DNA of 64,000 bases from Eledone cirrhosa (taxonomy: Eukaryota). The notes below the pieces were generated by a model. That model was given only the letters and a program-made list of their open reading frames with translations. It ran no database searches and was not told the origin of the DNA. Where the stretch lies: the NCBI GenBank assembly GCA_964016885.1, contig OZ024743.1, positions 227,416,001 through 227,480,000 of the forward strand, in the 5' to 3' direction. The translations under genes and the position numbers were made by a program. Positions 4,984 to 64,000 of this stretch are shown here, one piece after another (the stretch's first letter is position 1; the number at the start of each line of letters is the position of its first letter).

Positions 4984-5055
4984 CTGTCTGATGATTCATG
5001 GCACTGGGTACACGGAATAGTATGACCACTGTCATCATTGAAATATGTATCACAC
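4984..5055 (+). ncRNA. type I hammerhead ribozyme motif, long stem II
   Basis: TGT-CTGATGA-[ATGGCA.TGG...CCA.TGTCAT]-GAAA-TATGTA-TC-ACA; lies in a ~150-bp island between (TA)n tracts. Confidence 0.6.
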
Positions 5056-6435: not shown

Positions 6436-7130
6436 CTGATGTGTAGGTCAAGCGCATATATTAACTGTAAAACTAGAAATGTAGTATATAGCATAAGATG
6501 TACTGAAGGACAATGTAGAGATAAAAATATAGTGTACATAGGTGAGACATCTCGTAGTATAGGGGAACGGATAAATGAACACTGACGAGACCTTCAAGAT
6601 AGTAAAGAATCATCTGTACTCTACCAACATGCTAAAATAGAACATAAGGGTAAATTAGACAACATAGAAATAAAAATAGAATCTACACACAGAAAAGACG
6701 CAATGTTTAGACAAATCACAGAGGCAATAAACATAAATGAATTACAACCAAAATTAAATAGAAAACATGAGTGGAACAGCAACATCACAACTTACAATTA
6801 AGGACAAAATGAAAACACACACACACATAGAACAAACAACCAACCAGTAACATGTAAATAAACAAATAAATAAACGAATATAAACACACACAGACACCCG
6901 GATGTAACACGTGTGCAAACTAAGCACACAACACACACACAAAAACAAGATGGCGTAGGACAGAACAAAGGAGAGGCACAAAACACAAAGAAAAGAATCC
7001 CCAGTCACTGAAGAGGTCACAGAATGTGTGACGAAAGAACTTTGACAATATATAAACAACATCTGGTTGTGGAACCAACCAACCTACCGGAAATTTATAA
7101 ATTCCTAAATTTATAAATTTATTATAATAA
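6436..7130 (+). mobile_element. Penelope-like element 3' fragment: GIY-YIG endonuclease pseudogene plus 3' pLTR-like region
   Basis: translation NCKTRNVVYSIRC..C..VYIGETSRSIGERINEH*RD...LYQHAKIEH...RQITEAINI...LNRKHEW; one in-frame stop; HHR downstream. Confidence 0.85.
7004..7046 (+). ncRNA. minimal type I hammerhead ribozyme variant
   Basis: GTCA-CTGAAGA-G-GTCACA gaatg TGTGAC-GAAA-GAAC-TT-TGAC; stems I and II pair perfectly. Confidence 0.75.
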
Positions 7131-9016: not shown

Positions 9017-9066
9017 GCATTATTATATTTCTGTTACATGGTTATTCATGTGACTTCGTCAGATGC
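9017..9066 (-). ncRNA. type I hammerhead ribozyme motif
   Basis: minus strand GCAT-CTGACGA-A(GTCACATG aataac CATGTAAC)A-GAAA-TATAA-TA-ATGC. Confidence 0.65.
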
Positions 9067-18715: not shown

Positions 18716-18724
18716 GTTATATAT

Positions 18725-21085
18725 ATATATAAGATCAAAAGATGGTTAAAAGAGTTCCATGTATTTTATTATGCGCGTTTCAAAAACAAATATCATCATG
18801 CGAAGACATTTGCGTTTTCGTCAGATAAAATAGGGAGACATGATATGAAGGTTAAAAATCACTTGTGAATAGTGCAGTTCTAAATCAACATATGAAAAGT
18901 AGTTTTAGATTGATGTGTGATATTGGGAAAAAAATTTGAGGGGAGGTTGGAAAGGATGAAAAAGAAGAGGAGATGAGAGTAAAGAATGGAGGGGGAGGAG
19001 TATAATAAGGAAGGATGAGATAGGATGAGAGATGGGTGATAGAGTGAGAGAGATAGCTTTTATAACTGAGAAAAATATATTGTTTTACATAGAGAGGTTA
19101 AAAAACCGTTGGAAGATAATATATAAATTAAAAGAATTGGAAAATTAACGAAGAGAAAAATTTTAGAATAATGTTAAATTAAGGTTTGTATATTGAAGGG
19201 TTTAATAATAATTTAAGGGTTTAATAATATGTGCGATGGAAAGAAATTGTTGATATGTATTATTAAAAAAATATAAAAATATGATAATAGTAATGTAATT
19301 AAGGATATATTGTGAAAAGAAGTAGAAGAGTGGATGAATAAGTGTAATATGTATCAGTTAGATGAGCATGAAAGGGAGAAAAAATAATGAATTGAGGATG
19401 AATAATCTAACGTCAAAAAAATGTTTATGTTTACGAAGGATTTTTCAAGGTGATATTATAAAGTATGTAAAAGGGTAAGGATATATTGTGGTGAGTAGTA
19501 ATGAGAATTGAGAAGTATCTAGGAAGAAAAGGTACAGATTAGAGGTTAGAAATTAAAAGAAAAAAAGAAAAAAAGGAAAAAAAAAAAGAAAGAAAGAGAA
19601 GTGATAAATAGGAGTGATATAGAATGAGTAACTAGTATTATATAATATATAATAAATAACATTGAAATAAGGTAGAAAGATCGGTATATTTTTAAAGAAA
19701 TATATATGTATATATATATGTGCCTTTGAGAAAAGGATTTTTTAAATTGGTAAAGTATTAGATATTAGCTGTATACTTTATGGAATGTTCTGTGGAATTT
19801 ATGCAAGCAGAGAGAAAACAAGTCAGTGCGTCTATTTATTATATAATCTAAATTAGATATAATGGTAAATTTCTCACATAAACAGAGATTACATGTCTTG
19901 GATAGAGAACCATTCAAGTATGTAGAAGCAGAACAAACCTTCCTCCAAGATATGTTATAGTTAATATTTTTGTCTTTCAAGGACCATATGAGTTCTGAGA
20001 GTGCCGTGTTGGTTAATTTAAGTTGGTATTTAAAAGACGAATGATGATTATAAAGACGAGCTTTAAAGGAGGTGGAAGTGGAGCCAAAATAGGTAAAGGA
20101 ATTGGTGTCAGTTATAACTTTACATTCGTAGATTAAGTTTTTTCCAAGACAATGGTTGTTGAGAGGACATTTATTTTTAACAGGGCAATTACAATTGCGA
20201 TTAGAGAGATTAACAGAGTTATTAACAAGTGACCTAGTGTTATCTATAGAAGGAATTGGATTGGAGAAGTTATTTACGATATGAATAATAGTTTCTTGAT
20301 TTAGAATGGGATTAAGAACATTTAATGAAGTTGCGTTTGACGTTGTATTTGGGTTTGCAGAAATTTCCTAGAGTTAACAATGACGTCGGGAGTACTATTA
20401 CTATTATTATGATATTCAGTGTTGGAAGGAAGAGATTTAGTATTTAGTATTTTATTGTTGTGTTTAGAGATAATGTTGGAGATGTTGGAGGAGGTCGAAT
20501 AGGAAAATTGTATAGTGTGTTTGTTAAATATTTTACTATAGATATGTGAGGGAGGGAAGCATTTATTTAAGGCACTAAAGAATAATTTAGGAATACTATT
20601 ATTAATAGAGATGGAGAAAGGAGCATTATACCAGATTATGTTTTTGTATCTAGGTCTTTTATTAAAGTTATTGGAATGATCATGATTAATTATTCTACTG
20701 TAAGATCTTCTAGAATTTGTTTCTTTACTATATTTGATTTCATCAGGATAACCGGCTTTAGAAAGCGCGTTATTATAGTAATTGGCGTTAGCATCAAAGA
20801 TATTTTTATTAGATGATAGGTTGGATATTCTTTTTCCAATATTATAACATTCTTAATATTAGTGGGGTGGTTAGATTTAAAATTAACATAATTTAGGTTC
20901 TCATTGTTTTTATGGGCCAGTGTCAAGATTAAGAGATACATCCAAGAAATTAGCTAGTTTGATGTTGTTATCAAATTCAATTTTTAAGTTATGTTGGTTA
21001 AAGAGATTACGAGATACATCCAAGAAATTAGCTAGTTTGATGTTGTCATCAAATTCAATTTTTAAGTTATGTTGGTTAAAGAGAT
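18725..21085 (-). mobile_element. Penelope-like element (Naiad-type), inverted 5'-truncated arm
   Basis: reverse complement of 21521-23796; RT thumb ANFLDVSLNL..SNHP, CNC...CPL..HCL linker, GIY-YIG and CNLCLCEK tail. Confidence 0.9.
18762..18832 (-). ncRNA. type I hammerhead ribozyme (family A)
   Basis: TATTTTAT-CTGACGA-stem II-GAAA-CGCGCA-TA-ATAAAATA. Confidence 0.8.
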
Positions 21086-24045
<2,960 letters not shown>

Positions 24046-29748: not shown

Positions 29749-29820
29749 TGCAATTATACACCTGATGATGTCACCGGGTTAATACGTAACCTGGCCACTG
29801 AAATGTGCATAGTGTTTGCA
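29749..29820 (+). ncRNA. type I hammerhead ribozyme motif
   Basis: TGCAA..ACAC-CTGATGA-[CCGGGTTA atacg TAACCTGG]-GAAA-TGTGCA-TA-GTGT-TTGCA. Confidence 0.7.
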
Positions 29821-33964: not shown

Positions 33965-34132
33965 AAACCCATACACACACCCATACACACATGCATGCAT
34001 GCATACACATATACATACACACACATACATATATATGTATATATATGTATATAAATATATACATATATATATATATATATACATATGTATATATATATAT
34101 ATATATATATATTTATACACACATACACACAC

Positions 34133-34177
<45 letters not shown>

Positions 34178-34179
<2 letters not shown>

Positions 34180-34338
34180 ATATAAGATCAAAAGATGGTT
34201 AAAAGAGTTCCATGTATTTTATTATGCGCATTTCAAAAATAAATATCATCATGCAATAACATTTGCGTTTTCGTCAGATAAAATAGGGAGACATGATATG
34301 AAGGTTAAAACACACTTGTGAATAGTGCAGTTTTAAAT

Positions 34339-34346
<8 letters not shown>
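34178..34346 (-). mobile_element. solo family A pLTR arm with HHR at 34215-34285
   Basis: near-identical to 18725-18892 and 39090-39256; between (TA)n/(TAA)n tracts. Confidence 0.9.
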
Positions 34347-37044: not shown

Positions 37045-37098
37045 AGGGTTTCCTGATGATTTCTCCCGAATGAAACAGTTCTAGTCCTGTAGAAGCCT
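37045..37098 (+). ncRNA. type I hammerhead ribozyme (family C), intact core
   Basis: GGGTTTC-CTGATGA-T(TTC tccc GAA)T-GAAA-CAG ttctagtc CTG-TA-GAAGCCT. Confidence 0.8.
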
Positions 37099-37984: not shown

Positions 37985-38022
37985 CTTTCCTGACGAAGGA
38001 CTTTTGTCCGAAACGTTCTAAC
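37985..38022 (+). ncRNA. minimal hammerhead-like motif at the end of a pyrimidine/CA-rich PLE-like 3' UTR
   Basis: CTGACGA-A-GGAC tttt GTCC-GAAA-CG-TT; stem I not convincing. Confidence 0.55.
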
Positions 38023-38155: not shown

Positions 38156-38206
38156 AGATTCTACAGGACTAGAACTGTTTCATTCATTAGAAATCATCAG
38201 GAATCT
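38156..38206 (-). ncRNA. type I hammerhead ribozyme (family C), intact core
   Basis: minus strand AGATTC-CTGATGA-T(TTC taat GAA)T-GAAA-CAG ttctagtc CTG-TA-GAATCT. Confidence 0.85.
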
Positions 38207-38388: not shown

Positions 38389-39096
<708 letters not shown>

Positions 39097-39126
39097 AGAT
39101 CAAAAGATGGTTAAAGGAGTTCCATG

Positions 39127-39197
39127 TATTTTATTATGCGCATTTCAAAAACAAACATCATCATGCAATAATATTTGTGTTTTCATCAGATAAAACA
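39127..39197 (-). ncRNA. type I hammerhead ribozyme (family A)
   Basis: mirror of 39316-39386. Confidence 0.85.
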
Positions 39198-39315
39198 GGA
39201 GAACATGATATGAAGGCTAAAAAACACTTGTGGATAGTGCAGTTTTAAATCAACATATGTTGATTTAAAACTGCACTATCCACAAGTGTTTTTTAGCCTT
39301 CATATCATGTTCTCC

Positions 39316-39386
39316 TGTTTTATCTGATGAAAACACAAATATTATTGCATGATGATGTTTGTTTTTGAAATGCGCATAATAAAATA
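39316..39386 (+). ncRNA. type I hammerhead ribozyme (family A)
   Basis: TGTTTTAT-CTGATGA-AAACACAAATATTAT tgc ATGATGATGTTTGTTTTT-GAAA-TGCGCA-TA-ATAAAATA. Confidence 0.85.
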
Positions 39387-39507
39387 CATGGAACTCCTTT
39401 AACCATCTTTTGATCTCATATTATGTATACTCCAGTCCTACAAACTGTAGAGTGCTTCTTATCCGATATCTGCATTGCTTTATTGTACTACAATAAAACT
39501 CACCTCC

Positions 39508-39589
<82 letters not shown>

Positions 39590-45730: not shown

Positions 45731-46047
45731 TGTGTGGGTGCATTTGTATTTATTCGTGTGTCTGTGCACACGCATGCGCCTGCTTATCTATATCGATAAT
45801 ATTTCATTAAGAAAATTATGTCCACCACCTAAGTGAATGCAAAGTATGCGACTACTTGAAATATAGGCCATGTAACAATGCCTTATATACATGATCGTGC
45901 TATTACTTTCGTGCACTATAAAACAGCTTGCTGAATGAACTAAACATGCTTAAATATTACACAAATATTACACACACGCTTAGGTATATATATATATATA
46001 TATATATAATGTTAAAATATAAATATTAATGTTCTTTTGATCAATTA

Positions 46048-46102
46048 CATTTTATTATACATATTTCGGATGTACAACAGTACGTCCTCATCAGACAAAA
46101 TA
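46048..46102 (-). ncRNA. type I hammerhead ribozyme (family D)
   Basis: TATTTTGT-CTGATGA-GGACGTAC tgtt GTACATCC-GAAA-TATGTA-TA-ATAAAATG. Confidence 0.85.
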
Positions 46103-46210
46103 TAATGATACATGACATACCCTGAGATGTTAAATGGTTAAGATTTAATCAAGGTAGTACCTAATTAAATCTTAACCATTTAACATCTCAGGGTATGTCA
46201 TGTATCATTA

Positions 46211-46265
46211 TATTTTGTCTGATGAGGACGTAATATTGTACATCGGAAATATGTATAATAAAATG
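46211..46265 (+). ncRNA. type I hammerhead ribozyme (family D), stem II base mutated
   Basis: TATTTTGT-CTGATGA-GGACGTA atattg TACATCG-GAAA-TATGTA-TA-ATAAAATG. Confidence 0.75.
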
Positions 46266-46406
46266 TAATTGATCAAAAGAACATCTATTTTATTAATATT
46301 TATATTTTAATATTAATAACTCCGGAAAATTATTTTTTACCGTAGAGTGCTTCCAATCTACTGTAAAACTCATTCTTTGACATACTCATTGAATATTTGT
46401 TAACAC

Positions 46407-46479
<73 letters not shown>

Positions 46480-51840: not shown

Positions 51841-52039
51841 CGGCGGTGGATTGGCAGTATCGGTAGAGAGTCGGACGCCATGCTTTCCAGCATAGTTACG
51901 TCCCTTTTCGGTTTGAGTTCAAACCCCGCCGAGGTTAAATTTGCCTTTCATCCTTACGGGGTCGATAAAATAAAGTACCAGTAATGTAGTGAGTAATTGC
52001 TGGCCTTGTGTCAAAAGTAGAAACAATTATTATTATTAT
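51841..52039 (+). mobile_element. SINE family 1, near-intact, with (ATT) tail; partial copy upstream at 51690-51795
   Basis: GGCGGTGGATTGGCAGTATCGGTAG A-box region and GAGTTCAAACCCC B-box. Confidence 0.9.
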
Positions 52040-52802
52040 AGTTGCATTTATCTTGCTTTATGGTCATACGAGTTATCACCAAGTCACAACCAGTGACCTC
52101 AAGAGACAACAAGGTCCGCCATGTTCAAGAAAGAACATACATACACACACATGCATCTTTAGATGTTTAGACTTGTGATGTACTTATATTGACAGGATCT
52201 TCCTTAGTATATGGGCAGTTCCCATTAGTACTCTCTTTTGTATTTCTCCTATACGCGGATTTCCTGGGATTTGCGATAAGTAATCATTAGACCCCTTAAG
52301 TATCATTCCTAGAGAGCCTACAACCACTGGTATTGTTTTAGTTCTCAATTTCCACATTTTTCCACTTTCTATCTCCAGGTCCTTATACTTGCTCAATTTT
52401 TCAAATGTTTTTATAGATACATTCTTGTCTATTGGAACGGACATATCAATTAGCAGGCATACCCTCTTTTTAAAGTCCTTCAGTATTATATCAGGTCTAT
52501 TTGCATCTATTTTTCGGTCTGTTTGGATGCTAAAGTTCCACAAGATTGAGATGTGATCTTTTTCAAGTATAGGAGGTGGTTGATGCTCCCACCAATTCTT
52601 TTGATGGGGCAGGTCAAAATGCTTACACATTATCCAATGTATGTATTGTGCAGCTCTGTCATGCCTGTTTAGGTATTCGGTTGGAACTATAGGACTGCAC
52701 ATTGAAATTATATGATCAATGGTCTCTGGTTGTTTTTTACATACACGGCATAATGGGTTGAAACCATTTTTTATTTTTTATTATGTTGGCTTGGTAATTT
52801 TT
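52040..52802 (-). mobile_element. Dong/R4-like RLE LINE, 5'-truncated copy
   Basis: highly similar to 56133-56887; RHD motif and RPDII..LIDMSVP..K..KY endonuclease. Confidence 0.9.
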
Positions 52803-52809
52803 TTTTTTA

Positions 52810-55800
52810 TTTCTTTCTGGTGGATACGTCTATTACTGTTAGCGGGGGACTGGAATGGCATCTTAGACGCACGCTGGGATTGTGTGGGAGTAGCCGATAG
52901 GATCGGGGGGTGCAAAAGCCTCAAGCACCTACTCAGCCAGTTCCACCTGTCTGACGGGTATCGACTAGATTTCTCCAATGTGCCAGTATGGACATGGACC
53001 AACCGAATGGGGTCATGTAGATCGTATATAGACAGGATCTTCATTAGGAAAATAAATAGAAATAGTGTGGGCTGCCCATTTTTTAAAACGGTCGCCTATT
53101 CAGATCACAAATTTGTGATCTGTACGGTCGACCTAGATAAAACGCGTAGATTAGGACCGGGTTACTGGAAGCTGAACATGTCATTTCCGGCACGTAAGGC
53201 TTACAGGGATCGAGTTAACAATTTAGTTAAGCAAAAGTTGACAGGGGGGAATCATCAACAACAGATGGTGGGGCTTTCAAAAGAGAGATTAGAGTAACTT
53301 CGATAGAGTTCAGCAAAGAACTAGCGTTAGAGAAAAATAGAAAGGAGGGGAGCTGGTAGATAAGTTAGACGAGGCTATTTGTAGTGGCATTGCAACTGAC
53401 GTGCTAGCGGCGAAATGGCATTAGACCATTTCTTCAATGCGAAATACGAAGGTTGCATTGTCAGAGCCATAGGCGCGTGCGCTGAGAAACGAGGGAACCA
53501 AAGCTGTTCGATGGGCCCGCGTGGCGGAGGTGCAGCGTGGTAATAAAACCACAATTTGGTCTTTGGCGAACCGAGACGGACACGAGATAAGCGATTCCAA
53601 GCGGATGTGTGAGGCATTTCGCCAGCACTTTGCTCGGTTGTTCGGGGAGAGTGGCGAGGCAGAGAGAGTAGCGGATTTCAGTCCCTACCTTGACGGCTTG
53701 CCGCGCATCTCGACGGTCAACGCTGAGCGCTGCGAAAAGCTGATTACTTCAGCCGAAATTCAGGACGCCCTTGTCGGCTGCATGAGGCGCAAGTCACCCG
53801 GTTTGGATGGCCTGCCCTACGAGCGTTATGTAAATATGTCAGACTTGTTCTGCGATCTCCTCGAAGCACTCTACTGCAACTGGCAGCAGATTGGGAGTAT
53901 TCCCAGTTCTGTGAGCAGGGGAGTGGTGACGCTGATAAGGACGAGAACAAGAGGGATACATTAGACAACTTCAGGCCCATAACTCTGCTCAACACAGAGT
54001 TTAAGATTTTGGCCAAGGTGTTAGCAAAGAGATTGGCGCTTGTCGTCGAGGATTTGGTTGGGGAGGCGCAAAGTTGCGCAATCCCAGCCATACACGACAA
54101 TCACCACCCCATGCGATACATCATAGAGAGGGTAGTGTGCAAACCTGGCTTCGGTGGGGCACTAATCAATTTAGATCAATCGAAAGCATTCGATAGGGTC
54201 GACCATCGGCATCTGGAGTTTGTCCTCAAAGCAGCTGGCTTCGGCCCTGTCTTCAGAAGCTGGATCGCTGCAATGCACAGCGGCACACGCTCGGTGGTCA
54301 AGGTTAATGGCCACCTCTCGGGACCATTTCGGTTCTCCCGATCGGTCCGTCAAGGGTGCTCTCTCTCTTCCCTTCTGTACGTATTGACTCTCGAGCAGCC
54401 TTTACTGCGGAAGCTGAAGCTGTTACAGGGCATCCCGCTCGAACCGGGACGTGGAAAGGCGGTGTCGGCTTATGCGGCCGACATCACCGTGATGGTGTCG
54501 AACGCCTCAGAAATCGAGGTGGTCGGCACTTTATTGAAGGAATATGAAAGGTTGACAGGAGCCAAACTTAACCCGGAAAAGTCGGTGGGCTTGCAGCTAG
54601 GAACCTAGAGAGGCAAGCCCATGCCGTCCAACAGGCTCGTCGGGCGCTGGACGGACGGACCGGTAAAGTTGCTCGGGGTTTGGTTCGAACCAGACCTCCA
54701 GGTGGAAAAGAATTGGGACGAGGTAACGAGCACAGTAGCCAGTCTCACCCAAAAATGGGCTGGGAGGAAGCTATCACAGAAAGGTCGCGCGGAGGTGGCG
54801 AATGCGTACATCGCGTCCGTCATCTACTACCGCATGACCGTCGTGCCTTGCCCCTGTCCGCGCCTCATCAAGTTGGAACGGCTCCTCTTCAAATTCTTGT
54901 GGAGGGGACAAGTTCCGTTGATAAGGCGGTCCATTAGCTGCCAGCACCCTCTACGCGGACGGCTGGGTGTGCCGTGACTAATGATGCGCAGACATGCGTT
55001 GAGGCTGCGACATCTCCAAATATTCTGCCTCAACGGTGAACAGGTGTGGTCGCCGTTTATCAGACGGGCCTTTCCGCAGCTCATTTCTTTGAGCTGCAGT
55101 CCTGGGTCAAGAAGAGACCGAGACTGGGTGACTGGCACCTGGAATGTTGCCAGGCACTCACTGCCCTCTACCAAGCGGGCAATGCGATCAATGGAACTTC
55201 CACTCTCGAGTTCTATAGAGGATTGGTCGTGGGAAGTGCGATGACGCACTCGGAGAAGCTTTGGGCCTCGACGAAGTCGAACTGACCAGTCTGTACTGGA
55301 GGACTTTTGAGCCGGGGACGATGGACAATTTCCAGAAATCCCTCGCTTGGCAGTGCTACCGGGGGGCTCTGCCGGTTCGGGATAAACTCTACAGGCACGG
55401 AATGCGCACAGAAGGACGAAACCGTTCTACACGCACTTGTCCAATGTCCGTGCATTACTGACTTGTGGAGTTATGTCGAACAGCTACTGTCGCGTGTTGA
55501 ACGAATCCGGCTATCGGCCGAGTCCATAGTGAAAATCGACCCATCGCCTTCCTTAGGTCAGGAAGAGCAGGAAATTTTCCTATGTCTGGTGGCAGTTGCG
55601 AAAGAGGTTATATGGTGGACCAGGTTAAAAGGACTGAAGACAGACACTTTTCTCTTCGGCCAATCCCTCATCAACTTCTTCAAGTTTCACCTGGAAAGGA
55701 AGGTGAGGGTGGAGAGAGAAGTGCTGCCCCCAGTCCATTTGCTAAAGGGTGGGTGAATGTGGCGAGAATGGCTCGTGTGAATGGACCTACTCTGACCATG

Positions 55801-56088: not shown

Positions 56089-56132
<44 letters not shown>

Positions 56133-56133
<1 letters not shown>

Positions 56134-59100
56134 GTTGCATTTATCTTGCTTTATGTTCATACGAGTTATCACCAAGTCACAACAAGTGACCTCAAGAGAC
56201 AACAAGGTCCGCCATGTTCAAGAAAGAACATACATATTCACACATGCATCTTTAGTGTTTAGACATGTGATGTACTTATATTGACAGAATCTTCCTTAGT
56301 ATATGGGCAGTTCCCATTAGTACTATCTTTTGTATTTCTCCTATACGCGGGTTTCCTGGGATTTGCGATATGTAATCATTAGACCCCTTAGGTATCATTC
56401 CCAGAGCGCCTACAACCACTGGTATTGTTTTAGTTCTCAATTTCCACATTTTTCCAATTTCTATCTCCAGGTCCTTATACTTGCTCAATTTTTCAAATGT
56501 TTTTATAGATACATTCTTGTCTATTGGAACAGACATATCAATTAGCAGGCATACCCTCTTTTGAAAGTCCTTCAATATTATATCAGGTCTATTTGCATCT
56601 ATTTTTCGGTCTGTTTGGATGCTAAAGTTCCACAAGATTGAGATGTGATCTTTTTCAAGTATGGGAGGTGGTTGATGCTCCCACCAATTCTTTTGATGGG
56701 GCAGGTCAAAATGCTTACACATTATCCAATGTATGTATTGTGCAGCTCTGTCATGCCGTATTAGGTATTCGGTTGGAGCTATAGGACTGCACATTGAAAT
56801 TATATGGTCAATGGTCTCTGGTTGTTTTTTGCATACACGGCATAATGGGCTGCACCCATTTTTTATTATGTTGGCTTGGTAATTTTTTGTTGGCAGACAC
56901 TGATCTTGTGCTGATATAATCAGTCCTTCAGTCTCCGATTTCAGTCCAGAGGATGCCAACCACTGATGGGTTAAAGTTTTGTCAACATCAGGATTGTTAG
57001 CTCGCTCTGGGTATTTTCCATACAGAGGCTTTTCTTGTCATTTCTTAGCCAGTTTCTGTAGCAGTTCTTTCTTTGCAGTTACTTTTACCTGCTTTGCCTT
57101 TTCTGTGTTTTCCATTTCAGCAGTAAATGGGACTTCTGAAATTGGTAGTCCATTACTGTATCTTTGTGCATCTTTTGTAATGGAATATGATCTTTTGATG
57201 CTTTCGTGTTTCAAAACGAGTTTGATCATCCAATCATGTGATTCCCTTAGATATGTAGATAATCCAATTGTTGCAGTTTTCAACGCAATGTCTAACTGGA
57301 TTAACCCACGTCCTCCTTCTTTCCTAGGGAGATATATTCTATCTATATCTGCCTTAGGGTGATGAATTCTGTGCATGGTTAAGAATTTTCGAATTTTTGT
57401 ATCGAGCCTACGGATCTCTGTGCTTGACCAGTTGATGACATTGTAACTGTAGGTTACTACTGGTATGGCAAGCGTGTTTATGGCATCGATCCTATTCCTT
57501 GCATTCAATTCCGTTCTTAAGATTGCTCTTACTCTGCGGTAACATTCCTTCCTTATCCTTTCCCTCATTGTCGAGTGCTTGATTCCGTCTCCTTCACAAA
57601 CACCTAGATATTTGTAAGTTTTTTCTTGATCAAGTTCTCTTATCACGTTCCCCCGATCAAGATTAATGTCTGAACTCTTCAGCAGCTTTCCTCTGGTGAA
57701 CGTTGCTTTGGCGCATTTATCTAGTCCAAACTCCATTTTAATGTCATCACTGAACTGCTCCACAGTGGATAATAGCCCTTGCAATTGTTCATCATTTTTT
57801 GCAAATAGTTTCAGGCCATCCATGTAGAACAGGTGATTAATGGTTTTGTCATAGACTTTATATCCATGTTTTGTTTCATTGAGCATTTTACTTAATGGTA
57901 TAAGTGCGATGCAGAATAAAAGCGGTGATAAAGAGTCACCCTGAAAAATTCCACAATTAATATTAACTTCTCCAGCTTCCAGTGATTTTGTTTCACTATT
58001 CAAAAGGAGTGTCGTTTTCCATGAATGACAAAAACCTCCTGACAACGGGGGATATTTTGAAAATCTCTAAACATTTTTCAATCCAACTGTGTGGCAAACT
58101 ATCGAATGCTTTTTATAATCTATCCAAGCAATCGATAGATTTTTGTGTCTATTATGACAATCTTCCAGTATCATTTTGTTAACCAGAAGCTGATCCTTAC
58201 AGCCATATGAGCCTCGTTTACACCCTTTCTGCTCAATGGGAAATAGGTCATTTGTTATCAGGTGGTCATATGTGTATTCAGTTAGGACTGATGTTAAAAT
58301 TTTATACATTGTGGTCAAGCAAGTTATCGGTCTGTAATTTTTGGGATTGTTTGTCTCATCATTCTTCGGAAGCAGGAATGTAATGCCGTTAACTAGCCAT
58401 GATGGTATCTTTTCTGGCTCCTTAACTATTTCATTGTAAAGTTGGGCTAACAGCTCATGAGACTCTGTGAAGGCATTTATCCAAAAGTTTTGTATTTTGT
58501 CTTTTCCTGGGGATTTCTATTTGCTGGTTTTTCTTAGAGCCAAGCGCAACTGTTAAACTGTTATATTTTCCCATATTTGTTCCTCAAGGTGAACTGTATC
58601 TTTCATTTGTCTGTCTATCCATGGGGCATGTATGTTATGAACTTTTTCTTCGGCCCAGATCTTTTCCCAGAATTCTTGCACTTCCTCCTTGGGTGGTATT
58701 GATTTAGCAGTTATTGTTGACTTACTAATTTTTCTGTAGAAATTTCTTTGGTTGTTTTTGAACATATTATTGTCCTTATAGAATCTAGATCGTTTTTCAA
58801 AGCGCCTTATACGAGCAGCTTTGGCCGACACTTTTTGCTTGATTATTTCTATCAGCATGTCTATGTCACATGTTGATTTTATACTGTACTTTTTTTTCAA
58901 TTTTCTAAGTTTAGTTTGTTTAACATGTTCACCTACTTTATAGTTTGTTAAAATTTCTATGTCAGATCGGAGAAGGTTTATTTGGCGATTGATGTTCTCT
59001 TGCCAAGTAGATTTCTTGTGGGAATTCCTTTGTTTTTTCATCTTCACTCCACATAAGTGAGTGGTGACTTTAGCCGATGCATAATAGAGATGATTTAAAT

Positions 59101-59892: not shown

Positions 59893-61830
59893 ATGGCTGA
59901 CTCAGAGTTATTCCTTTCTCACAAACTAACACCTCACACCGACACCACCATTGTAAATATTACTACGTTTGCCAACACAAAAAAAAATATAAGCAGTAGC
60001 AATATTTTAAATTTGTCTCAGGCAGACATTCATTTCCAGCCATTACCAATGACTGCAAGTGATAAAGCCACCACCACCACCAAAACCGCGACAACCACCA
60101 CCCCCATCACCACCGCGACAACAGAAACAAAAGAAAAAAATAAATTAACTCGTGATATCGAAATAAATTCACCCAAAATGAACGCTTCCACAACGAACAC
60201 CACTGACGCCACCACCACCACAACTGAAACTAAAATTAATAATAACAAAAATAACGATAACAACAACAGCAACAATGACATTAAGAAAACCAGCCTGAGT
60301 TTTGCCAGAGTAGCAAAACAGTGCGAAGCATTTCAGGTAGCACAGGAGAAATTAGAAGAAGCCAAAAAAATGGTAAAGAAAGATGGGTACAGGGTCAGCC
60401 TCACCCCCGCCCCCTAATAAAATGGAGCATCGGCGCCTATGCACCGTGTGTTATCGAACAATTAATATAAAATCGCGCCGAGTGGAACGGGCATCCGAGT
60501 CCCAAATCTAAAAAGCTTTTGGACATGTGTGGCCAAAGAAACTCCACATCAGACGTGGGCAGAAGTATGGAACCGTGGACGTGTTCTTTGAAACACCACG
60601 GGAGGCTAAAGAACACTCCATGGCCCCATTAAGAAGTGACGATTTCACACTCGTCCCAAGCTATTGTGGACAGAGACTCGTAAATATCATGGTCACCCAC
60701 GTTCCACCGGCCATCGAAATTCCCTGGCTAATAGCTGCCGTCCTCGCCCGCATCGAAGCCAACACCAAGATAATCGAAATAGCGAAAGAAAAGCAGGAGA
60801 ACTGGTCCGGATCTGGGATGGAGCTCCTGATCCAAGCGGACCAAAAAAGCATTGAGGAGATCCCAGAGGTAATAGACCTCACTGACGGCAGCCACCTCAC
60901 CGTAATTGTCGAGGGCAGAAGGCCTAGGTGTGTCGTTTGTGGTGAAGGAACCCACCTAAGGGCTTTCTGTCCTCAGGTTAAAAGGTTGAGGCCACCTCTC
61001 CTACCCACTCAAGTGACTCAACCATCAACACCACCAGCAGCAGAGATGGCAGCAACAACTGTAGCAGCAACAACAGAAGCAACTATAACAGCAACAACCC
61101 CAGCAACCATAACAAAGCCAACACAACCACCACCCAACGCTTCAGAACTAGCACCAGCGCCTACACTATTCACTACGCCACAAACAAAACTAACGCCTGT
61201 GGAGGATTTTCCACTCCCCGGCCTATCACAACTGGAGACAGATTGAGACGACGAGGAGTGAGGAACGGTTTCAGGAAAGAAGAAAAAAAGAAACCAAAAA
61301 AGAAAAAAATTCTCTTCCTTCCCCTCCAAAAACAAAATACAGGGGGAAACAAATAAACTATCAAACAAAAAAGTTAGGACAGATATGCCACCATCGACAC
61401 CAGCATCACCAAGCCCATCACCACAAAACCAACACCATCACCATCATTAACCCCAACACCACAAAAGTCACCAAAAAGGGAAACAGAAACAAACCCACAA
61501 CAAACGCAAACAAAACAAAACAACCAAAACGATACACACTACACAGCATTAAATTTGAACAACAACCAATTATTACACTACATCCAACAGAACACCAGCA
61601 TCACAGAAAAATACTACACAACAACCCAAAAGTTCTCACCACCTCCACACATACAAATCACCCGCATCACACAGAAAACGTACATGACACTAAAACAAAA
61701 ATTCCCCAAAGACATCGGAGACTTCCGACAAACACTCTCCAGGAGGATTTATAAGGACATCCTTCCTGAGGAGGCCACAAGCAGTGAAAAGGATGGAAAA
61801 ACCGTCCTTTCTCTACGAGAAGTAAGGTAA
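59893..61830 (+). pseudogene. ORF1 (gag-like, zinc knuckle) of a Tx1-like LINE starting at ~59677
   Basis: SFARV motif, VEGRRPRCVVCGEGTHLRAFCP (CX2CX4HX4C), Thr/Pro-rich tail; frameshift near 60410 and stops near 61246. Confidence 0.8.
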
Positions 61831-61864
61831 GTGGTCTTTCCCATCTTTTCCACTCCATTTCAAC

Positions 61865-64000
61865 ATGACCTCACTAAATGCGCGTGGCTTGGGGTCGTCA
61901 TGGAAGCAGGGCCACCTGCTCAACGACCTCAGGTCACTAAACATAGATGTAGTGGCCATCAGCGAGACCAGAATCTCCGAAGCACAGGCCTTCGCACCGA
62001 CCTTCGGCGGCTACGATGTGTACGCATCTCCCAGCCATCCTGGATCGGAGGGAGGAGTTGGTGTGCTTTTTCGGAGATGTTTGGATCTCGCCATATGGGC
62101 CATCTTCCTGGACCCAGAAGGTAAGTTGGTGGTGCTGGACGTGACCAGCGGAGACGGGCAAGCTTTCAGGCTAGTGGCCGTCTATGCCCCGACAGGAGTA
62201 GGGCGGCCTGATTTCTTACGGCGTGTGGAGACTTTTCTTGGAACGTCCCGCTCTTTAGTGTTAGTGGGCGACTGGAACGGGATCTTAGATGCACGCTGGG
62301 TGTGTGTGGGATTATCGATTAGGGGAGGAGGGTGCAAGAGTCTCACCAACCTGCTCAGCCGTTTTGAATTGTCTGACAGGTACCGATTGGATTTCCTGAA
62401 TGTGCCAATGTGGACTTGGACAAATCGCGTTGGGTCATCCAGATCATATCTCGATAGAATATTTTGTAGGGAAATTAATAGGTCTAGCATAAGCTGTCCA
62501 CAATTCAAGATAATCAGCTACACGGACCACGAATTCGTGATCTGTGTGCTTGACTTAGATAGGCTTCATAGACGAGTACCCGGCTACTGGAAGCTAAACG
62601 CGTCCTTACCAGGCGCGCAAGGCCTACAGAGACCGGATTAGCGAACTAGTTAAGCGAGCGTTGACGGTGGCCATCGTCAACAACAAGTGGTGGTTTGCTC
62701 TGAAAAGAATCATTAGAATAGAATCCATTAGGTTTAGTAAGGCTTTAGCTATAGAGAAAAATTAGACGAGGCGCTTAGCAAAGGCATAGCGACCGACGTT
62801 CTTGCGGCGAAATTGGCCCTTGACCAATTCTTCAATGCAAAGCACGAAGGCTACGTTGTCAGAGCTAGGGTGCGTGCTCTCAGACACGAGGGGACGAAAG
62901 CCGTTCAATGGGCCCGAGTGGCGCAGGCGCGTCGTGGCAACAAAGCCACGATCCGGTCTTTGGTGGACCACGACGTGCGCATGCTACTCGATCCCGGGCA
63001 AATGTGTGAAGCTTTTCAGCGACACTTCGCTCAACTGTTCGGGGGCAGCGGCAGGCCGGATCGAGGGATGGACTTTAGTGTCTACCTCGACGGACTGCCG
63101 CGGCTCTCGGCCACTGAGGAGGAGTGTTGCGAAAAGCCGATAACAGCCGCTGAAGTACGGGAGGCAATGACTGGCTGCACAAGGGGTAAATTGCCTGGTT
63201 TGGATGGTCTGCTCTATGAACTTTACGTACAAATGCCAGACTTGTTCGGAGGCCTCTTGGCGGACGTCTACTGCAACTGGCAACAGAACGGGAGATTTCC
63301 AGCTCTGTGAGCCGAAAGCTGTGGCGCTGCTGAGAAAGGATCCGAACAAGGGGGATAACATAGATAATTTTATGCCCATAACTCTGCTAAACACAGAGTT
63401 CAAGATCTTGGCCAAGGTGCTAGCAAAGAGGTTGGCGCTTGTCGTTGGTGGTCTGGTGGGAGAGGCGCAGACATGCGCCATTCCCGACAGATCCATCCAC
63501 GACAACCTCCACCTCATGCGATATATCGTAGAAAGGGTAGCTAGGGAACCTAGCACGGGTGGGTCCTTGATCAATTTAGATCAGTCGAAAGCTTTCGATA
63601 GGGTCGACCATCGTTACCTAGCGGCAGTCCTGAGGGCGGCTTGCTTTGGGCCCGTCTTCAGAGGCTGGATCGCTGCCATGCACAGCGACATCTGCTCTGT
63701 GGTGAGAGTGAACGGTCACCTTTCGGAACATTTCAACATCATGCGCTCGGTCCGCCATGGACATCGCCTCTCGTCCCTCTTGTACGTATTGACTCTCGAG
63801 CCATTACTGCACAAAATGGAGACGTTGAGGGGTGTCCCGCGCGAACTAGGATCGGGAAGATCCGTGTCAGCATATGCCGACGATGTCACCGTAGTGGTGT
63901 CGAACGCCAACCACATCGAGGCGATCGGCACTACACTAACAGAATACGAAGCGGTGACAGGAGCAATGATCAACCAGGAAAAGTCAGTGGGCCTGCAGCT
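61865..64000 (+). pseudogene. ORF2 (AP endonuclease + RT) of a Tx1-like LINE; runs off the window end
   Basis: SLNARGL, ISET, GGVGVL, VYAP, VGDWN, SYLDRIF, TDH, GYWKLN, PGLDGL, LDQSKAFDRVDH, AYADDVTV; frameshifts. Confidence 0.92.

Follow-up and report, generated by a model that had tools for sequence, protein, structure and literature searches.

A hammerhead-bearing palindrome of Eledone cirrhosa is a short head-to-head insertion of a Penelope-like element, probably made by two separate reverse transcriptions

The DNA between positions 46007 and 46410 of the window (the whole stretch analysed, 64,000 nt of Eledone cirrhosa contig OZ024743.1) is, as judged by its coding parent, a short insertion of an endonuclease-bearing Penelope-like retroelement with motifs of the Hydra clade, here called family D. 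Its two halves lie head to head and were probably made by two separate reverse transcriptions of sense RNA, the products of which were then joined. The parent element was found, and its copies have fixed outer ends (+159 and +251/254), inner ends that are independent of each other and pile up at one base, and arms of the same source. Positions in the element are numbered from the A of TAATC-A-CTACC (+1) in the parent, which reads ...TTAATCACTACCTTGATTAA... across the centre region. The window copy is made up as follows.

45987 to 46008, no strand: (TA)n target, left flank, from the sequence; tail-less arm ends run into (TA)n in 44 of 47 cases (109 loci).
46007 to 46158, minus strand: inverted tail-less arm, element ~+159 to exactly +1 (predicted transcription start), from mapping of this locus (L031).
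46048 to 46102, minus strand: minimal type I hammerhead motif in the family form, predicted cleavage at 46056/46055, from the drawn core and stems.
46152 to 46162, no strand: head-to-head junction AGGTA-G-TACCT with a 1-nt spacer, from the window and parent sequences.
46158 to 46312, plus strand: forward arm, element +3 to ~+159 (pLTR downstream of the predicted start), from mapping.
46211 to 46265, plus strand: the other hammerhead motif, its stem II altered by three substitutions since insertion, with cleavage predicted after 46257, from the drawn core.
46290 to 46317, plus strand: AT-rich hairpin with the putative internal reverse-transcription start (~+159, TTTAATA), from folds and arm ends.
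46313 to 46409, plus strand: tail of ~95 nt, on the right arm only, ending TTT(AATA), from comparison of copies and the full-length copy L119.
46410 to 46474, no strand: (TA)n target, right flank, from the sequence; tail ends run into (TA)n in 64 of 65 cases (109 loci).

The preliminary description of this DNA had reported a palindrome with inverted arms and two outward-pointing hammerheads, a tail on the right only, (TA)n on both sides, and a hammerhead stem I of TATTTTGT/ATAAAATG with a UA site, and all of these were confirmed. The arms, 46022-46149 and 46164-46291, are 128 nt long and 95% complementary, and lie within a self-inverted match of the window at 46015-46301 (92.8%). The fold of the palindrome has z = -32.7, and equal stability was reached in 0 of 100 shuffles. 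Four substitutions, a 1-nt indel and a 9-nt indel, the latter a deletion in the left (inverted) arm relative to the right arm, distinguish the two arms, a divergence near the family mean of 2.9% between arms within one copy (75 pairs). At the junction the left arm stops at +1 and the right arm begins at +3, with the T at 46158 common to both; together with its tail the right arm covers +3 to +251.

The hammerhead cores, CTGATGA...GAAA, are located at 46219-46249 (+) and 46094-46064 (-). A narrow Rfam scan of each arm gave no hammerhead match at E<=10, and thus the motifs are called hammerheads from a core and stems drawn by hand. Over the whole window only miRNA-like matches, from repeats and the palindrome, were found among the 150 Rfam matches listed. 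In a free fold of each hammerhead alone, the hammerhead structure was not formed (z -1.2 and -1.6). The minus-strand motif is the family form, and its short, near-palindromic helix III is predicted to need a dimer by the rule given in PMC4209133. Three of the arm substitutions fall in stem II of the plus-strand motif, one of which breaks the core-adjacent closing pair (G-C to G-G). The hammerheads would be passengers of the pLTR: they lie on opposite strands, and a transcript spanning the unit is predicted to bury both in one long duplex. Further hammerhead-like cores were noted in the window at 4988-5043, 7008-7036, 29762-29803, 37990-38013 and 37053-37075 and, on the minus strand, at 9028-9062 and 38178-38200, and several further minimal hammerhead families are present in flanking loci.

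A search of the genome with the whole unit gave 1729 candidates, of which the best 40 were scored, all spanning nearly the whole unit at 91–94% identity. An exact 21-mer of family D occurs 2407 times genome-wide. When the tail alone was the query, copies extending upstream without inversion were obtained, and extension of these led to a reverse transcriptase with a C-terminal GIY-YIG nuclease. L119 is a full-length copy with a direct pLTR pair, in which the 5' pLTR runs via the tail into an ORF whose ATG lies ~60 nt past the tail end. In this and other long copies the motifs DITSYY, GASDS, YRDD and then VYK...YIG follow one another in a single ORF broken by frameshifts. The three frameshifted ORF pieces gave 0 matches to Pfam, and a PDB search of such pieces gave no match; the top Atlas match for the ORF (0.97) is a eukaryotic cluster (38% PF26215).

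As judged by a comparison of motifs rather than by placement in a tree, the family D protein matches the Hydra clade as described in PMC8557442. The GIY-YIG domain lacks the two internal cysteines (there is no CCHH motif and a single cysteine between VYK and YIG), and the DKT motif (VKSDKTNNL), the CxCx5C linker (CNCRNKTDC) and the CxxC and CxH motifs around the conserved E and N (CALCTME and CPH) were all found. The (TA)n target is likewise that of the Hydra clade, as is the hammerhead, which lies in the pLTR and has a short palindromic helix III; its core and stems I-III were drawn, and its cleavage is predicted. Family D differs from the Hydra clade in having RWR (RRLRWRAF) in place of RWK, and in a unit of ~4.3 kb rather than under 3 kb. 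Its pLTRs form partial tandems, direct in L119 and inverted in 52 of 80 loci, and the tail is present at one end (outer ends +159 and +254), its length being above the published 30–40 nt. Penelope-like elements typically have a 5'-truncated copy inverted next to them and a tail on one side (PMC8557442). Since the inverted copy, the one-sided tail and the hammerhead are thus already published, the window palindrome is an expected product of a known class.

Two other classes were considered and ruled out, namely a non-LTR retrozyme, as the arms are inverted and the sequence runs on into an ORF, and a MITE or fold-back DNA transposon, as the ends are asymmetric, the junctions copy-specific and the 5' truncation variable. 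An upstream ORF piece in L047 was rejected as part of the parent, as it belongs to another element hosting the inserted copy. A candidate intron (GTAATT at ~+112 to TAG at +189) has a weak donor and was not seen at the corresponding position of family A, a second family of such palindromes in the window.

Arms were mapped on L119 with the secondary insertion of that copy masked. The first 100 of the 2407 21-mer matches, taken in order of position, represent 80 loci in which one arm must reach +3; a second sample of 30 tail-selected loci is free of that bias. The 80 loci include 52 clear pairs, the other 28 being single tailed, single tail-less, ambiguous or complex (L186, L191, L192, L224, L240, L246 and L248 were excluded as ambiguous or complex). 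Outer ends are fixed, at ~+159 in inverted arms and at +251/254 in tailed arms; each lies at a TTTAATA and is followed by (TA)n. Inner ends vary independently between the two arms. On the 5' side the inverted arm extends beyond the tailed one by more than 30 nt in 27 of the 52 pairs, and by more than 300 nt in 13 (for example, -3283 against -164 in L207 and -1871 against +68 in L200); the tailed arm is longer in 11 pairs and the arms are even in 14. No overlap between arms was found in 6 pairs. Among the tail-selected loci inverted pairs of varied lengths occur in only 16 of 30, and the inverted arm is the longer by more than 30 nt in 5 of these 16. In 10 of the 80 loci a tail-less arm was found, but no tailed partner. 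Part of the inequality between arms may have arisen through later deletions at the centre of these unstable palindromes.

A tail is present on both arms in L009 (G000:C1:398091399-398091897) and L248, and on neither in L271; hence either end can use either start. Tailed arms often halt at +129 to +137 (about 46283-46291 in the window), just 5' of the AT hairpin with the +159 start, as if the second start had halted the first cDNA; such stops were seen in 5 of 30 tail-selected copies and 6 of 80 position-ordered loci.

Genome-wide, +1 is the last parental base in at least 502 of the 2407 arms, a lower bound set by a search pattern that requires A or T eleven places on. Under the same constraint 345 arms continue past +1, a count that misses one main subfamily. 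In a sample of 101 arms, 22 end at +1, 8 at +2 and 8 at +3 (three of the 16 ends at +2/+3 being variants of long arms), 51 run past, and no single position from -2 to -15 has more than 2 ends.

The centre had been described as a small hairpin, AGGTA g TACCT. This sequence is indeed present at 46152-46162, but AGGTA is the reverse complement of the parental TACCT, and hence the centre is a symmetry axis only. The parent has a different, weak 7-bp hairpin overlapping the site (TTAATCA/TGATTAA, -6 to +14, -3.0 kcal/mol as DNA). It provides the basis for an unlikely alternative, close to the hypothesis of PMC3846280, in which a single cDNA folds over at a hairpin close to its 3' end and serves as its own template, unequal arms arising through later deletions initiated at the centre. 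This hairpin is real, 39 centres genome-wide carry the sequence predicted from it, and the two arms of a copy have variants in common. Palindromes are also prone to central deletions. However, the 39 hairpin-type centres compare with at least 502 arms ending at +1, where a cDNA would have no paired 3' end in family D or in family A, and family A has no hairpin ending at its centre, yet the same pile-up at a TCA motif. The expectation that centres are tied to parental hairpins is thereby contradicted. At 16 simple centres the spacer is absent in 5, one base in 7, two bases in 1 and more in 3. A fold-back loop needs a minimum of about 3 nt, and thus the spacers of 0–2 nt at 13 of the 16 are too short for it. 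Ten of the 39 hairpin-type centres were examined; the strand of the tail carries the loop in 5 and the opposite strand in 3, with 2 loci tail-less, as expected if two strands were joined by microhomology. Self-copying accounts neither for an inverted arm that in many copies exceeds the tailed one by kilobases and in 10 of 80 loci occurs by itself, nor for the fixed outer end at +159. The family D copies therefore argue against the published self-priming, antisense-template hypothesis (PMC3846280).

The hot spot of arm ends looks like an RNA start in its sequence context: +1 falls on the A of a TCACT that resembles an Inr and is preceded at 31 nt by a TATA box, and a TATA-like box ~30 nt upstream was found in all 14 parent pLTRs printed, including those of a subfamily with otherwise different upstream DNA. 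A pair of TATA plus TCACT has been reported in rotifer pLTRs (PMC3846280), and the start of fly Penelope maps within the pLTR (PMC2377424). The base after +1, counted by eye, is C in 38 of 100 arms listed, as compared with an expected 15–20% (p 1e-5 to 1e-8), although these arms are not all independent as both strands of some loci are included. In four junctions a single extra base stands between two +1 bases. A copied cap is known to leave an extra G in full-length L1 (PMC11702581), and by analogy the extra C at arm ends resembles a copied cap; microhomology with the other arm accounts equally well for some of the extra C's.

It might instead be proposed that +1 is a strong reverse transcriptase stop, caused by structure or bound protein, on a longer RNA, with two cDNAs still joined head to head. 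The start site is a prediction from sequence, 51 of 101 arms pass +1, the 7-bp hairpin spans the site, and four pairs combine a short and a long arm, all of which would suit such a stop. Nevertheless, stalling at this hairpin is expected at its 3' base (+14) and not at +1, the TATA spacing and Inr-like motif suit a start site, the excess of extra C is found in two families, and the long arms are accounted for by read-through RNA from tandem copies. A stop of this kind is considered quite unlikely.

Both arms of a copy come from the same source. Variants common to the two arms number 147, as compared with a mean of 30 and a maximum of 55 in 2000 permutations, and at eight subfamily-diagnostic sites only 1–4 pairs per site among about 65–75 are discordant. 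As junctions also differ between copies of family D, the inverted arm is made anew with each insertion, as had been proposed. Common variants are expected also under fold-back priming and gene conversion, and hence do not discriminate between the models. Both arms reach +3 in 26 pairs, of which 11 are short/short, 11 long/long and 4 mixed (p 0.0005); this concordance (22 of 26) favours one RNA or one source, while the mixed pairs remain. Two separate insertions, the second copy landing inverted at the 5' edge of an older copy or in the same (TA)n run, would be conceivable for a family so abundant (2407 matches) and so directed to (TA)n, but most junctions are without (TA)n, the close pairs among the first 100 matches comprise 19 head-to-head and 0 tail-to-tail, and the concordance at the diagnostic sites largely refutes this very improbable alternative. 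Hardly any weight is given to a self-standing palindromic element, MITE-like or a two-ribozyme retrozyme, spreading as a fixed unit, as the best 40 of 1729 matches that cover nearly the whole palindrome were selected for likeness, junctions vary by copy, inverted pairs make up only 16 of the 30 tail-selected loci and vary in length, the sequence runs on into the coding parent and the hammerheads are on opposite strands.

Two separate reverse transcriptions could proceed as follows. The protein, probably as a dimer, would cut both strands of the (TA)n target. One cut end would prime at the tail end of the RNA and the other ~95 nt upstream, both at TTTAATA. Both cDNAs would head for the 5' end of the RNA and, on RNA from the pLTR promoter, reach the end of the template at the capped +1 base. 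End-joining would then connect the 3' ends of the cDNAs with 0–2 nt of microhomology or filler, and each would prime the second strand of the other. Since both starts lie near the mRNA 5' end, a monomer transcript would yield short stubs like the window copy; long arms would need read-through RNA from tandem copies. A precedent is provided by the anole Poseidon relative, for which cutting and extension of both strands, two reverse-transcription start sites bounding the tail, use of uncleaved RNA and a predicted dimer were reported in vitro (PMC11167929). With modest confidence, the proposal can be generalised to two-ended target-primed reverse transcription that starts at two fixed sites of a single capped sense RNA, with run-off cDNAs joined 3'–3'; the centres would then map start sites family by family, and antisense self-priming would be wrong for these elements.

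The layout as such is known. Partial-tandem pLTRs, a head-to-head inverted copy at the 5' end, a one-sided tail, a pLTR hammerhead, TATA plus TCACT and an AT-rich target have all been described for Penelope-like insertions (PMC8557442; PMC3846280; PMC2377424), whereas here the tail is ~95 nt rather than 30–40 nt and both arms often shrink to the 160/250 nt downstream of the promoter. The published reading of the junction palindromes, self-priming on an antisense template, is not supported by the family D copies. Like family D, Anolis Poseidon has two tail-bounding starts near the ORF start, an AT-rich target and no need for hammerhead cleavage, but it starts within the ORF, at an AC-rich stem-loop, whereas family D starts upstream of the ATG in AT-rich sequence; inverted copies are not explained in the parts of that paper covered (PMC11167929). 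In LINE-1 twin priming, too, the second target end primes a second cDNA, giving an inverted 5' part, microhomology at the joint and an extra 5' G, but the LINE-1 pieces abut with 1–10 bp of loss or gain and the internal site varies (PMC11702581). In family D the second start does not vary, and true palindromes result, as the cDNAs usually share sequence, up to kilobases of it. The workings are alike and the product differs, and a LINE-1-type twin priming product proper was ruled out, as the arms overlap in all but 6 of 52 pairs. Animal non-LTR retrozymes (bioRxiv 10.64898/2026.07.22.740005) are similarly short, non-coding and pLTR-related with a type I hammerhead, but they are direct tandem repeats with two ribozymes on the same strand, while the window unit is an inverted truncation of a coding element.

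The origin of the inverted repeats and tail of Penelope-like elements is listed as an open question (PMC8557442), and in the literature searched no proposal was found that two-ended priming creates the Penelope inverted repeats, most subscription papers, older Penelope structure papers and supplements lying outside that search. Here, the models can be told apart on natural products that number in the thousands and have ends defined to the base; two cDNAs copied from capped sense RNA are favoured over self-priming, and the sites to mutate in the existing in vitro system are named. The model also accounts for the many short two-hammerhead palindromes in such genomes, which are likely not functional ribozyme units.

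Family A is represented in the window by a palindrome (39084-39511), a long head-to-head copy (18718-23890) and a single copy (34003-34346). The long copy is a 5-kb pair with reverse transcriptase and GIY-YIG remains on both arms that are 44–63% identical to those of family D (tblastx). Family D had been taken as independent of family A and unrelated to it outside the hammerhead. The pLTR DNA is indeed unrelated except for the hammerhead and a GTAGAGTG motif, but the proteins are homologous and the elements paralogous, and the recurrence of the design is thus inherited rather than an independent invention. From that recurrence a general hairpin-primed mechanism had been argued. The design does recur and one general mechanism is retained, but not hairpin priming, as the TACCT of the parent is merely mirrored; the recurrence in these paralogous elements points to the start site. 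The A of TTTTC-A-TATG is the centre of the family A palindrome and also the end of the single copy (34346). There are 9022 matching family A arms in the genome, and by eye 36 of the first 100 leave the parent after the TCA base, 16 of these 36 with C next, while three loci read +1, C, +1. No clear TATA box was found upstream of the TCA in family A.

The tail motif ACTCC...GTAGAGT is common to families D and A. In the form ACTCC...G(TA/TC)GAGTG it lies just 3' of the tail-less arm end at 46319-46348 and 39430-39462 in the window and in the upstream sister copy of L038. ACTCC...GAGTG is retained in both families and in a third, sister family, and its two halves might form a stem (CGG/CCG vs CAG/CTG), a pairing supported by free folds only in A; it is a candidate positioning signal for the internal start.

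Two more short palindromes, 38725-38818 and 38926-39048, lie beside the family A unit, and the repeat of the latter is also the secondary insertion within L119. In L047 (1-390) and on the minus strand of L083 a family D copy is nested within another repeat, the ORF of which we take to have candidate Naiad-like features (a long RT2-3 region). Elsewhere in the window, direct repeats of 779 bp (52026-52803 and 56119-56888, 96%) surround a GC-rich stretch, with a reverse transcriptase ORF between them at 53727-54608 (RVT_1, E 1.7e-22) and 74% related DNA at 62755-64000. LINE-type remains are present at 56276-58066 (-) and 61826-62641 (+), with RVT_1 and zf-RVT, and an endonuclease/exonuclease/phosphatase domain.
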